DNA of 64,000 nt from Escherichia coli (GCF_051903065.1 NZ_CP178438.1); one strand, 5' to 3'. Positions 1 to 6,000 are shown, counted from the stretch's first letter. A program made the numbers.

Positions 1-3000
1 AAGATGGATACCCACGCACGGCGTTACCGAATGCAATCGTGTCAAATATCATCCAAGCACCATAAAGAAAGGCAGCACCGGCAACGAACAGGCCAATGTA
101 AGTCCACATGCGCAGCGGAAAGGTAGAGAAGCTGGTGATCCCCTCAAGGGCAAGGTTCCAGAGTTTCCAACCGTTGAACTTCGTGCTGCCAGCTACGCGT
201 TCTGCGCGCGCATATTCAACCACATCAGTGCGTCCGCCAACCCAGCTCAATACGCCCTTCATGAACAGGTTGCGTTCTGGCATGAGCTTAATGTTTTCCA
301 CTACTTCGCGAGACATGAGCCGGAAGTCGCCGACATTCTCTTCTATCTGAGGGTTGCTGATTTTGTTGTGAAGTTTATAGAACCACTCAGCAGATTTACG
401 CTTCAGCCGGCTGTCAGTGGAGCGGTCAGATCGCTTAGCCAGCACCATATCAGCCCCGGCCTGCCACTTCTCGATGAGGTGAGGAATGACCTCAATCGGG
501 TCCTGAAGGTCAACATCAATCGGGATAACCGCCTCACCAGTTGCGTGGTCAAGCCCTGCGAACAGTGCGGGCTCTTTACCGAAATTACGGGTGAAGGAAA
601 GAGGAACGACAAGCGGATCAGCCACAGCAAGCGCGTTTATAATTGATTCTGTCGCGTCTTTGCTGCCGTCATTTATGAAGACTATCTCGACTTCATGCTG
701 CTGAAGCCCTTCAAATTCCCGAACAGTTTTATAAAAAATAGGTATCGCGTCTTCTTCGTTAAAGACGGGAACGACCAGAGAAATTTTCATTTCGCATCCC
801 TAAAGACAATGAACTTTGAATAAATAAAACCGCACACCAGACTGATGGCGGAGAAGGTGATAAGAGTGATAATTGGAGGAAGCGAGCACTTATCAGCAGC
901 CCATCCAACAGTAGCACTCAGTGTTCCCATGAACCCGACATATAACATGTAGCGCATCGTTGTAGTCGATGCTTTGAATGTGAATTTTGCATTCGCGAAG
1001 AAGCTAAAGCTCACAGCCACAACGAAACCTGCGAAGTTTGCCAGAGCCTGATTGGTATGCGCGGCATAGATACATACACCAAAAACCACCCAGTGTATAA
1101 GTGTGTTCAGCACACCAATCGAGGTGTACTTTGCAAATAGCTTTAACATTTCTTCTATCAGCTAATAATCAAAGGCATGAAGTCTATCATCCAAGTCTCA
1201 ATCGATCGATGACTTGCTGTGGTTGATGAGACAAAACTGATGCACACAAAGATTTGCACTGGATTGCAAGGCTTTGTGCTCTTCGATAGTTGTTAAGGTG
1301 GATCACTCCGGCTTTTCATCAATCCAGTCCGCCCACCACTGCATCATCTCCCTGCGCTTATCGAGATACTGAGCATGGTTGTAAATTCAACTAACCCAGT
1401 GCATTGACAAAAAATTAGTGCAAGAAGACAAAAATCACCTTGCGCTAATGCTCTGTCTCAGGTCACTAATGCTATCTAAGTAGTTGATTCATAGTGACTG
1501 GATATGTTGTGTTTTGTAGCATTACGCAGTCTATTTATTAGACTAAAGATATTGTAATGCATTGATATTAATGGTTTTTAATGTTTCACGTTCAGCTTTT
1601 TTATACTAACTTGAGCGAAACGGGAAGGTAAAAAGACAAAAAGTTGTTTTTAATACCTTTAAGTGATACCAGATAGCATTGCGCCATCTGGCAGAGTAAT
1701 TAACTAAACATCGCGGTAATCGATGCGCTTGCCAGAGAGTGGAAATGAACGTTAAACCCGACCATCGCGCCGCTGGCTCCTTCATCGACATCAATACGCT
1801 CTACATCCAGCGCGTGAACGGTAAAAATGTAGCGATGGGTTTCGCCTTTCGGCGGCGCTGCGCCATCGTATCCGGTTTTACCAAAATCGGTACGCGTCTG
1901 CAAAACGCCGTCTGGCATTGCTACCAGACCAGAGCCAAACCCTTGCGGTAATACGCGGGTATCAGCGGGTAAATTAACAACTACCCAGTGCCACTAGCCG
2001 GAGCCGGTTGGCGCATCCGGGTCGTAGCAGGTGACGACAAAACTTTTCGTTCCCGCAGGAACATCATCCCACGCCAGATGCGGTGAAATATTATCGCCAT
2101 CGTAACCCATGCCGTTAAAGACATGACGATGTGGCAACTTATCGCCATCGCGCAGATCATTACTGATGAGTTTCATTAGAATGCCTCCGGGAAACCTCGG
2201 CCTTCAGGCCGGGGAGGAAAGGAGGCGGTTTTCCGACTAACTGTACTTTGCATAATTACATTTTCCTCTTTAGTATGTGAACACATGAAACGCGCATATA
2301 AATACCGGTTTTACCCGACAACTGAGCAGGCTGAGCTTTTAGCTCAGACGTTCGGCTGTGTGCGCTTCGTCTACAATTCCATCCTTCGTTGGCGTACCGA
2401 TGCGTACTACGAGCGAAAGGAAAAGATCGGTTATCTACAGGCCAACGCTCGCCTTACGGCGCTCAAAAAAGAGCCTGAATACATATGGCTGAATGTCCCC
2501 TCCAGCAGTCGTTGCGCCACCAACAAGCCGCCTTTGCTAACTTCTTTGCCGGACGAGCTGCATATCCGGCTTTCAAAAGCAAACGGCACAAACAGGTGGC
2601 TGAGTTCACTGCCAGCGCGTTTAAACACCGTGACGGCGAGTTGTATATAGCAAAAGCAAGTCGCCTCTGGATGTTCGCTGGAGTCGAGAATTACCCTCTG
2701 CGCCGTCAACCGTTACCATTTCCAGAGATAGCGCTGGCAGGTACTTTGTTTCCTGCCTGTGTGAGTTTGAACCTGTATCAATGCCTGTTACCGCTAAAAC
2801 GGTCGGCATTGATGTGGGCTTAAAAGATTTATTCGTTACCGATACCGGATTCAAAACCGACAATCCCCGCCACACCGCTAAATATGCGAAGCGATTAACG
2901 CTGCTACAGCGATGTTTAAGCAGGAAGCAAAAAGGCTCAAGAAACCGTATTAAAGCCCGCTTAAAGGTCGCCCGACTCCACGCGAAAATCGCCGATTGCC

Positions 3001-6000
3001 GGATGGACAATCTACACAAGTTGTCCCGCAAACTGATTAACGAAAACCAAGTTGTTTGCGTCGAATCCCTCAAGGTGAAAAACATGATCCGCAACCCGAA
3101 GCTGTCTAAAGCAATAGCTGACGCAGGCTGGAGCGAACTTGTTCGCCAGCTCCAGTACAAAGGCAAATGGGCCGAGCGGTCAGTGGTCGCCATTGACCAG
3201 TATTTACCGTCCTCAAAATGCTGTAGTTGCTGCGGTTTCACCATGCAAAAAATGCCTCTTAATGTTCGTAAATGGCACTGCCCTGAATGCGGCGCAGACC
3301 ATGATCGCGACATTAACGCGGCACGTAATATTAAAGCTGCCGGGCTGGCAGTGTTAGCCCACGGAGAGCCTGTAAACCCTGAATCGCAGCACGCGGCTTA
3401 GGTTCGGCTCGTTGAAGTGGGAATCCCCGTCATTCGGGGCGGGGAGCCGTCAAGAACCCTCCTTTCTAGTTTGCAGAAAGTGTAGCCAGAAACCCTCACG
3501 CTGACTTCCCGTTATTGGCAAAAAAATGTTTCATCCTGCACCGCACGGTTAACCGCTGCGGTCAGACGCTGCAACTGTTGCGGGAGAATAATATAGGGCG
3601 GCATCAGGTAAATCAGCTTGCCAAAAGGCCGGATCCAGACACCCTGTTCGACAAAGAATTTTTGCAGCGCCGCCATATTCACCGGACGAGTTGTTTCGAC
3701 TACGCCGATTGCCCCCAGCACGCGCACATCGGCAACCATTTCGGCATCACGGGCGGGGGCAAGTTGCTCGCGCAGCTGTACTTCAATAGCCGCCACCTGT
3801 TGCTGCCAGTCGCCAGATTCGAGAATCGCCAGGCTGGCGTTAGCTGCCGCGCAGGCCAGCGGATTACCCATAAAAGTTGGCCCGTGCATAAAGCAGCCGG
3901 CTTCGCCGTTACTGATGGTTTCTGCAACCTCGCGCGTGGTGAGTGTGGCGGAAAGGGTCATTGTGCCGCCGGTTAAGGCTTTACCGAGGCACAAAATGTC
4001 CGGCGCGATTTCTGCATGTTCACAGGCAAACAGTTTGCCGGTACGACCAAATCCGGTGGCGATCTCGTCGGCAATCAGCAAGATACCTTCGCGATCGCAC
4101 ATTTTGCGGATTCGTTTTAACCATTGCGGATGGTACATGCGCATCCCGCCTGCGCCCTGGACAATCGGCTCAATGATCACCGCCGCGATTTCATGACGAT
4201 GCGCCGCCATCAGGCGGGCAAAGCCCACCATATCGCGCTCATCCCATTCACCATCCATGCGGCTTTGCGGGGCGGGAGCAAACAAGTTTTCTGGCAGATA
4301 GCCTTTCCACAGGCTGTGCATTGAGTTGTCCGGATCGCACACCGACATCGCGCCAAAGGTATCGCCATGATAACCATTGCGGAAGGTCAGAAAACGCTGG
4401 CGCGCTTCGCCTTTGGCTTGCCAGTACTGCAACGCCATTTTCATCGCCACTTCCACCGCTACGGAACCGGAGTCCGCGAGAAAAACGCACTCCAGCGGTT
4501 GCGGCGTCATCGCCACCAGTTTGCGGCACAGCTCAATGGCTGGCGCATGAGTGATACCGCCAAACATCACATGCGACATGGCATCAATTTGCGTCTTCAT
4601 CGCCACATTAAGCTGCGGGTGATTGTAGCCGTGGATCGCCGCCCACCAGGACGACATACCGTCAACCAGGCGTCTGCCGTCAGACAAAATTAGCTCGCAA
4701 CCTTCGGCGCTTGCCACCGGATAAACCGGTAGCGGGGAGGTCATGGATGTGTATGGGTGCCAGATATGGCGTTGGTCAAAGGCAAGATCGTCCGTTGTCA
4801 TAATCGACTTGTAAACCAAATTGAAAAGATTTAGGTTTACAAGTCTACACCGAATTAACAACAAAAAACACGTTTGGAGAAGCCCCATGGCTCACCGCCC
4901 ACGCTGGACATTGTCGCAAGTCACAGAATTATTTGAAAAACCGTTGCTGGATCTGCTGTTTGAAGCGCAGCAGGTGCATCGCCAGCATTTCGATCCTCGT
5001 CAGGTGCAGGTCAGCACGTTGCTGTCGATTAAGACCGGAGCTTGTCCGGAAGATTGCAAATACTGCCCGCAAAGCTCGCGCTACAAAACCGGGCTGGAAG
5101 CCGAGCGGTTGATGGAAGTTGAACAGGTGCTGGAGTCGGCGCGCAAAGCGAAAGCTGCGGGATCGACGCGTTTCTGTATGGGCGCGGCGTGGAAGAATCC
5201 CCACGAACGCGATATGCCGTACCTGGAACAAATGGTGCAGGGGGTAAAAGCGATGGGACTGGAGGCGTGTATGACGCTGGGTACGTTGAGTGAATCTCAG
5301 GCGCAGCGCCTTGCGAATGCCGGGCTGGATTACTACAACCACAACCTCGACACCTCGCCGGAGTTTTACGGCAATATCATCACCACACGCACTTATCAGG
5401 AACGCCTCGATACGCTGGAAAAAGTGCGCGATGCCGGGATCAAAGTCTGCTCAGGTGGCATTGTGGGCTTAGGCGAAACGGTAAAAGATCGCGCCGGATT
5501 ATTGCTGCAACTGGCAAACCTGCCGACGCCGCCGGAAAGCGTGCCAATCAACATGCTGGTGAAGGTGAAAGGCACGCCGCTTGCCGATAACGATGACGTT
5601 GATGCCTTTGATTTTATTCGCACCATTGCGGTCGCGCGGATCATGATGCCGACCTCTTACGTGCGCCTTTCTGCCGGACGCGAGCAGATGAACGAACAGA
5701 CTCAGGCGATGTGCTTTATGGCAGGCGCAAACTCGATTTTCTACGGTTGCAAACTGCTGACCACGCCGAATCCGGAAGAAGATAAAGACCTGCAACTGTT
5801 CCGCAAACTGGGGCTAAATCCGCAGCAAACTGCCGTGCTGGCGGGCGATAACGAACAACAGCAGCGTCTGGAACAGGCACTGATGACCCCGGACACTGAC
5901 GAATATTACAACGCGGCAGCACTATGAGCTGGCAGGAGAAAATCAACGCGGCGCTCGATGCGCGGCGTGCTGCCGATGCCCTGCGTCGCCGTTATCCAGT

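Follow-up and report, generated by a model that had tools for sequence, protein, structure and literature searches.

A decayed tnpB gene between ybhB and bioA of Escherichia coli, very probably in an IS1341-type IS200/IS605 element that keeps its ends and ωRNA scaffold

Introduction

The model for the ends of IS200/IS605 insertion sequences is IS608 (ISHp608) of Helicobacter pylori, which has subterminal hairpins and makes no target duplication. IS608 inserts 3′ of TTAC, its right end finishes in TCAA, and it encodes the transposase TnpA. Here we describe a locus in a stretch of 64,000 nucleotides from Escherichia coli (GCF_051903065.1 NZ_CP178438.1), the whole of which is referred to below as the window. 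A broken gene for the RNA-guided nuclease TnpB lies there between ybhB and bioA, and its identification began with an original prediction made by a model from the sequence alone. The object is already annotated and of a known kind, and it is an ordinary insertion between these two genes. Positions 2177-3453 are very probably a tnpB-only (IS1341-type) IS200/IS605 element in which the nuclease gene has decayed, with the ends and the scaffold of the guide RNA (ωRNA) undamaged.

The closest described protein is TnpB of ISDra2 from Deinococcus radiodurans (8exa, 8bf8, 8h1j; PMC8612924, PMC10097598), with which the present family shares full-length family membership, the RuvC triad and the zinc finger. 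In ISDra2 the scaffold of the ωRNA is 116 nt long and folds into four stems plus a pseudoknot, the UUUA tetraloop lying at -20 to -17 (PMC10097598). The guide length of 16 nt used below is carried over from the same source (PMC10097598), and the steps of the mechanism that we infer build on the published homing model for TnpB (PMC8612924; PMC10055086). ISDra2 differs from the present family in having its own tnpA; the copy in the window, moreover, is a pseudogene.

Elements of the IS1341 group carry tnpB between a left end (LE) and a right end (RE) without tnpA, which is also the arrangement found here. In a survey of E. coli, such elements are reported from 312 of 2467 genomes (12.65%), with one to two copies each (PMC9956272). 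That frequency fits the chromosomal carriers together with the plasmid copies described below, and the survey passages concerned make no mention of the present insertion site, of a decayed allele or of the RNA structure (PMC9956272). Two other groups are relevant for comparison. TldR proteins are descendants of TnpB that are fixed at a host locus with a guide RNA (PMC10705468); they have lost RuvC residues and adjoin conserved host genes. Sense-overlapping transcripts (sotRNAs) of IS1341-type tnpB genes, for their part, lie over the 3′ end of tnpB and, like the Rfam family HgcC, include a terminal GC-rich tetraloop hairpin (PMC4615843). No relevant paper emerged when the literature was searched for TnpB in combination with ybhB.

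Results

Boundaries and insertion site

The element and its ends were located by alignment with the empty site of E. coli K-12, which gave a span of 2177-3453 (1277 bp, + strand). The original prediction, at 2191-3500, had the place right but not the ends, and overshot the right one by 47 bp. The features at the two ends are as follows.

2172-2176, + strand: TTCAT, target or transposon-adjacent motif (TAM), directly 5′ of the left end; seen in the empty K-12 site and in the flanks of relatives
2177-2284, + strand: left end, 108 bp, non-coding; from sequence, DNA fold and relatives
2195-2214, + strand: LE hairpin CCTCGGCC-TTCA-GGCCGGGG, 18 nt inside the boundary; from DNA fold, kept in relatives
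3425-3444, + strand: RE subterminal hairpin CCCCGTC-ATTCGG-GGCGGGG, then AGCCGTCAA to the element boundary

Positions 2100-3600 were compared by megablast with 5426 complete E. coli genomes, and 5408 gave a match. Most of the query was covered in 343 of the 5426, which we count as carriers; in non-carriers only the two flanks were matched, directly joined, and the empty site is thus present in ~94% of complete E. coli genomes. The adjacency of ybhB and bioA without the element, which had been proposed as a check on the insertion, is borne out in this way. The median number of places per genome was one, a single chromosomal site in E. coli.

In K-12 the empty site reads ...GAGTTTCAT joined to GAACCCTCC..., with GAGTTTCAT to the left of the insertion point and GAACCCTCCTTTC... 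to its right. Because this site aligns as two joined flanks, the insert is exactly 2177-3453 and no base around it is duplicated (empty site TTCAT/GAACC). The CAT of TTCAT is the start codon of ybhB in reverse complement. The insertion therefore lies 3′ of a short conserved target without duplication, as in IS200/IS605 elements, and the ends likewise have subterminal hairpins on both sides and no terminal inverted repeats. Hairpins near both ends had been part of the original prediction, and both are there; they are alike in sequence, GC-rich and conserved among relatives, and the one at the right end also forms the final stem of the ωRNA. The terminal bases on the right are GTCAA, to be compared with TCAA in IS608.

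A broken gene and its intact alleles

The coding region accounts for the following features.

2285-3401, + strand: tnpB pseudogene of 1117 bp (intact gene, 1131 bp); from alignment with intact alleles and RefSeq
2285-2650, 2485-2823 and 2781-3401, + strand: three overlapping open reading frames (ORFs) of tnpB, in three frames

Pooled, the three ORFs spell a TnpB-like protein that starts with MKRAYKYRFYPT and ends in CCSCCGF...CPECGADHDRDINAARNI. The spread over three frames, the N-terminal MKRAYKYRFYPT, the zinc-finger cysteines and the HDRD motif had all been read correctly in the original prediction. Its two single-nucleotide shifts near 2495 and 2660 were right in position and wrong in nature. 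Compared with the alleles of strains Rb-3, E2348/69, ATCC 25922 and DEF10, all four of which are annotated intact, lesion 1 is a 13-bp deletion (ATGTTTCCTGCGT missing at 2495/2496) and lesion 2 is a 1-bp deletion (one G missing at 2654/2655).

A 50-bp probe over the 13-bp junction matched exactly in seven complete genomes and a 50-bp probe over the 1-bp junction in six; in the seventh genome the pseudogene is likewise 1117 bp long. The genomes with the decayed allele come from meat in China, calves, farm environment, people in Vietnam and other human isolates. Since the lesions recur identically in six to seven independently sequenced genomes, they are inherited and are not sequencing errors, which disposes of the earlier suggestion that the first shift was an error in a run of C. 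A copy 100% identical to that of the window, in ECNB21-M121, is labelled in RefSeq as 'RNA-guided endonuclease InsQ/TnpB family protein, frameshifted'. With a 261-bp probe taken from the intact allele and spanning both lesion sites, 341 genomes were found; identity was at least 99% in 328 of the 341 copies, and seven fell in the 90-95% band, as expected for the deletion allele. The decayed allele is thus a rare derivative, found in ~2% of carriers, and its substitutions relative to intact alleles number only about a dozen.

The last ORF (2781-3401) still codes for the RuvC and zinc-finger parts, and the codons of the RuvC triad are present in it. It is severed from the N-terminal WED/REC part, and a working nuclease is therefore not expected from the window copy. 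Judged from its reading frames, the nuclease function of this copy is dead and a full-length TnpB cannot be made.

The kind of protein that was lost can be read from the allele of strain Rb-3, which at the same site has an uninterrupted 1131-bp gene for 376 amino acids. It scores 368.8 bits against the NCBIfam model guided_TnpB (cutoff 100), and Pfam assigns HTH_OrfB_IS605 (residues 1-45), OrfB_IS605 (172-274) and Cas12f1-like_TNB (287-354), so that the protein has the N-terminal HTH/WED-REC, split RuvC and zinc-ribbon TNB architecture of TnpB. Residues 3-369 match the ISDra2 TnpB structures 8exa and 8h1j (E 3e-75). Aligned with ISDra2, the intact allele has D181, E265 and D347 at the positions of the RuvC triad D191, E278 and D361, and all four zinc-finger cysteines are retained. 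The profile, domain and structure-sequence searches thus agree with the tnpB-only IS200/IS605 identity first proposed for the locus, and the intact allele would encode an RNA-guided nuclease of the ISDra2 type.

Relatives and the absence of tnpA

A scan of one genome per species yielded 40 related loci with 63-86% amino-acid identity, in Enterobacterales, Zobellella, Pseudomonas sp. NW5, Endozoicomonas and other hosts. Zobellella, Pseudomonas sp. NW5 and Endozoicomonas have several copies per genome, at different sites. Across the 40 relatives, conservation of the right end runs through ...GGGGAGCAGTCAA and halts at GTCAA (3453), beyond which each locus differs; this places the right end at 3453 independently of the empty-site alignment. 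To the left, most loci are flanked by T(C/T)AT and a subgroup by TTAC, the motif that IS608 uses, and the adjoining flanks are unrelated. This is how the target or TAM of an IS200/IS605 element would be expected to behave. Every relative has the LE hairpin ~90-110 bp ahead of the tnpB start.

In the window only 108 bp separate the LE boundary from the ATG of tnpB, and tnpB is the sole gene between the ends. The original prediction had noted that tnpA is missing from the element, and this held in a tblastn search with a provisional Y1 transposase (TnpA) probe, which covered the element and up to 3 kb around each relative, TnpA elsewhere in E. coli not being searched for, and found none. The sole weak match to the probe lies at a contig end in one relative (L024). 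Since no similarity to Y1 transposase occurs in or near members of the family, the family is natively tnpB-only, in the IS1341 arrangement.

Two further copies deserve mention. The E. coli plasmid pCR-0005_2 (locus L003, 3003-4185) carries a paralogue whose DNA is ~80% identical and whose 376-aa TnpB is intact; this paralogue was found at 47 plasmid places in E. coli. Its neighbours in pCR-0005_2 are phage-like and include genes for lysozyme, SSB, an anti-phage dGTPase and a large N-6 DNA methylase. The TnpB encoded on a contig of 1533 bp labelled as a metagenome-assembled genome (MAG) of an uncultured Sutterella sp. (L005, CAJKAP010000026.1) is 100% identical to that of Rb-3, and the contig also agrees exactly with Rb-3 at the right end and in the flank beyond it; most likely the contig belongs to E. 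coli and was mis-binned into the Sutterella MAG.

A covarying ωRNA scaffold

The RNA region overlaps the 3′ end of tnpB and the right end. Its predicted features, with the helices supported by covariation, are the following.

3336-3453, + strand: ωRNA scaffold, 118 nt, of which 66 nt lie in the 3′ coding part of tnpB and 52 nt in the non-coding right end
3336-3341/3347-3352, + strand: helix 1
3358-3360/3419-3421, + strand: helix 2
3366-3370/3406-3410, + strand: helix 3
3378-3381/3399-3402, + strand: helix 4
3385-3387/3393-3395, + strand: helix 5
3424-3431/3438-3445, + strand: helix 6

The structure was derived from an alignment of 21 right ends of one length class. RNAalifold predicted 34 pairs, with compensatory double changes in 19 of the 34. 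Paired cells amounted to 96%, against 38-48% when the 3′ partners were slid by one to three columns, and the covariation score was 0.485 against 0.06-0.15 on the slid partners; none of 500 shuffles reached the observed values. The six helices with double changes cover 3336-3445. Some of the covarying pairs lie inside the coding region, where GCUGCC/GGCAGU is exchanged for GCGGCG/CGCCGU in the codons for KAAGLAV. Two further RNAalifold helices (4-6/154-156 and 8-10/18-20) fall in codons of the HDRD motif, had zero double changes and were dropped. The single-sequence fold of the right end has unremarkable z-scores (-1.4 to -1.5), and the structure can therefore be shown by comparison only.

Searches with a covariance model of these six helices gave 169.7 bits for the window copy (fifth of 34), 58-171 bits for family members outside the training set of the model, and 165.7 bits for the RNA of the plasmid paralogue in pCR-0005_2. 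The same model found no second ωRNA copy in the 64-kb window. A structured RNA thus extends over the 3′ end of tnpB and stops at the right-end boundary, where variable flank begins. These comparisons support the predicted overlap of a guide RNA with the 3′ end of tnpB and the right end, a claim that the original prediction had made without an alignment of relatives.

The scaffold resembles that of ISDra2, which is likewise encoded by the 3′ end of tnpB and the right end, in length (118 nt here, 116 nt there) and in the order of its stems, namely a 5′ hairpin, a long-range stem that encloses a branched stem, and a terminal tetraloop hairpin ~9-10 nt ahead of the guide. GUC (3449-3451) could pair with GGC in the loop 3342-3346. 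An all-against-all covariation scan for the pseudoknot gave no clear tertiary pair and was swamped by phylogenetic correlation.

An Rfam scan of positions 1-8000 with E up to 1 found no ωRNA family and returned only weak matches to HgcC and DicF, the latter a chance match. The HgcC match (2128-2234, 21 bits, E 0.16) is far under the gathering score of 50 and falls on the left-end hairpin CCUCGGCCUUCAGGCCGGGGAGGA, not on the ωRNA region. A tetraloop hairpin like that of IS1341 right ends was identified in 2015 as an unannotated HgcC motif (PMC4615843); the match is therefore due to a motif common to transposon ends and is not purely fortuitous.

Variation of the RNA region was also seen among more distant members. 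Right ends from Endozoicomonas, Paracoccus and Salinivibrio (L021-L031) have an extra hairpin of ~25-45 nt between the branched stem and the terminal hairpin, and four loci (L017, L022, L024 and L033) have an insertion within the terminal hairpin. About 400 bp downstream of the copy in Klebsiella grimontii, a weak second match to the ωRNA model (L010, 4519-4691, - strand, 20.8 bits, E 3e-4) may be a right-end remnant.

Predicted guide and proposed mechanism

3454-3469, + strand: predicted 16-nt guide GAACCCTCCTTTCTAG, in the host flank; in the empty site it follows TTCAT directly

The predicted guide covers the native ribosome-binding site of ybhB. It varies by lineage at 3456 and 3468, and reads GAACCCTCCTTTCTAG in the window and GAGCCCTCCTTTCTTG in Rb-3, E2348/69, ATCC 25922 and DEF10. 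The K-12 empty site has GAACCCTCCTTTCTTG at this position, and each guide therefore carries one mismatch to the K-12-type target. The putative TAM, TTCAT, has 5 nt, is T-rich and ends in AT, as does TTGAT of ISDra2.

The history of the locus would have begun with a single insertion at the start codon of ybhB, directly 3′ of TTCAT and without target duplication, and the element would since have been inherited at that one site by ~6% of E. coli. If the intact alleles work as ISDra2 does, the tnpB transcript would be trimmed to an ωRNA whose last 16 nt are supplied by the flank, and this RNA would direct TnpB to TTCAT followed by GAACCCTCCTTTC..., exactly the sequence of the empty ybhB-bioA site. 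A cut there would then favour retention of the element, or its re-copying by recombination, and new sites would require a Y1 transposase (TnpA) in trans. Guide length, cleavage of the empty site and mobilisation in trans are the parts of this scheme that we infer.

For the window copy the expectation is different. TnpB itself reportedly carries out the processing of its mRNA into ωRNA (PMC10278001), and a promoter scan found no promoter-like site on the + strand within the element; accumulation of a mature ωRNA from this copy is unlikely for these reasons.

Neighbouring genes and prophage remnant

1700-2176, - strand: ybhB, left neighbour; its start codon (2174-2176) abuts the left end
3512-4801, - strand: bioA, right neighbour, converging on tnpB; its stop codon (3512-3514) is 58 nt from the right end

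The original prediction had placed the right end next to a bioA terminator; a scan from the right end to the stop codon of bioA revealed no terminator-like site. The left end puts GGAGG 7 nt upstream of the ybhB ATG, in place of the native AGGAGG, and a sigma-70-like site at 2281-2252 on the - strand (TTCACA, 18 nt, AATTAT, with TG) faces ybhB. There is a small possibility that the left end now supplies the ribosome-binding site of ybhB, and perhaps a promoter, uncoupling ybhB from bioA. The two genes are presumably co-transcribed otherwise, an assumption that a literature search did not confirm.

In the window, ybhB has a nonsense change (TGG to TAG) at 1995, where the strand shown has T and the near-identical ECNB21-M121 has C. 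The 50-bp stretch with this change occurs in only two complete genomes, 23CRST027 and 23CRST031, both with the decayed tnpB, and the two neighbours ybhB and tnpB are therefore both pseudogenes in this lineage. In the element-bearing genomes sampled, ybhB is annotated intact in six of six.

Further to the left, the window opens (1-1620) within a short prophage remnant at the lambda attachment site, and GCTTTTTTATACTAA at 1595-1609 is what we take to be the lambda att core. The remnant carries a gtrA/gtrB-like bactoprenol glucosyl transferase and a glycosyltransferase (787-1149 and upstream). The RefSeq record that matches here shows a truncated integrase and an IS481 transposase still further to the left. 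The sister strain 2018-05-2CC has the same decayed tnpB without the prophage remnant.

Discussion

The identification of 2177-3453 as a tnpB-only element with a decayed nuclease gene and undamaged ends and scaffold draws on the exact empty site, the intact alleles, the mobile relatives and the covarying RNA. Several observations weigh against it. The narrow NCBIfam model IS200_TnpB (NF038281) gives 399.1 bits, below its cutoff of 425, and only the broader subfamily model was passed. Occupancy of one chromosomal site does not demonstrate mobility within E. coli. The pseudoknot expected by analogy with ISDra2 has no support from covariation, the 3′ tail GUCAA being invariant, and the assignments of TAM, guide length and cleavage would be extrapolations from ISDra2.

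The gene might in principle be intact in the living strain, both frame changes being errors of sequencing or assembly. Lesion 2 would suit such an explanation, for it drops a single G from AAAGAG, a short purine-rich stretch. Lesion 1, in contrast, is a deletion of 13 bp and not a homopolymer slip, identical junctions recur in six to seven complete genomes from different countries and laboratories, and RefSeq calls the strains with the decayed allele frameshifted, so that errors are extremely unlikely to be the cause. Somewhat less improbable, though still very unlikely, is that the protein is a domesticated derivative of TnpB, a TldR-like RNA-guided repressor or similar, which regulates ybhB or bioA with a guide at the ybhB ribosome-binding region. 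One fixed site in E. coli, a majority of intact alleles, a predicted guide over the native ribosome-binding site, and the GGAGG and promoter-like site that the left end sets before ybhB could all be read in its favour. TldR proteins, however, have lost RuvC residues, whereas the working alleles here keep the triad and the protein is not nuclease-dead. The flanks of the relatives, too, are unrelated in every genus, and Zobellella, Pseudomonas sp. NW5 and Endozoicomonas hold multiple copies, as befits a mobile element and not a gene next to conserved host genes. In a carrier cell, moreover, the guide target has no adjacent TAM, as the element separates the two, and the copy in the window is decayed.

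A different proposal concerns the RNA and not the protein. The right end of the dead copy might yield a functional stand-alone RNA, either an orphan ωRNA or a sense-overlapping transcript, acting alone or with the TnpB of the plasmid paralogue. The undamaged scaffold, with the fifth-best score of 34, would be compatible with this, as would the fit of the plasmid paralogue RNA to the same model; sense-overlapping RNAs from the 3′ end of IS1341-type tnpB genes, defective copies included, have also been reported (PMC4615843). The decay, on the other hand, is recent and confined to about seven genomes. As only about a dozen substitutions separate the decayed allele from intact ones, an intact RNA region in it needs no selection. 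The promoter scan and the reported processing of the mRNA by TnpB itself (PMC10278001) count against the proposal as well, and we regard it as quite unlikely. We give a similarly small chance to its more specific form, in which the undamaged right end persists as an orphan guide RNA whose guide is directed at the ribosome-binding region of ybhB and which runs antisense to the transcript of bioA and ybhB. Such an RNA could be used in trans by the ~80% identical plasmid TnpB, or could itself act as an antisense or structured RNA. A decayed IS1341-type element thus remains by far the preferred reading of the locus.

As a discovery the value of this locus is small, since RefSeq already lists it as a frameshifted TnpB and a survey of such tnpB-only elements in E. 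coli exists. The empty site, the intact allele and the decayed allele nevertheless occur together in one species and form a clean natural example. These three states pin down the putative TAM (TTCAT), the exact ends and the predicted guide of a TnpB that E. coli E2348/69 and ATCC 25922, which are common clinical and laboratory strains, carry in intact form. From the alignment of relatives comes an ωRNA model, backed by covariation, for an enterobacterial family of TnpB that lies outside Rfam. The predicted target of the intact allele is the ybhB-bioA junction of ~94% of E. coli, next to the lambda attachment site, which would make a test of homing or exclusion easy.

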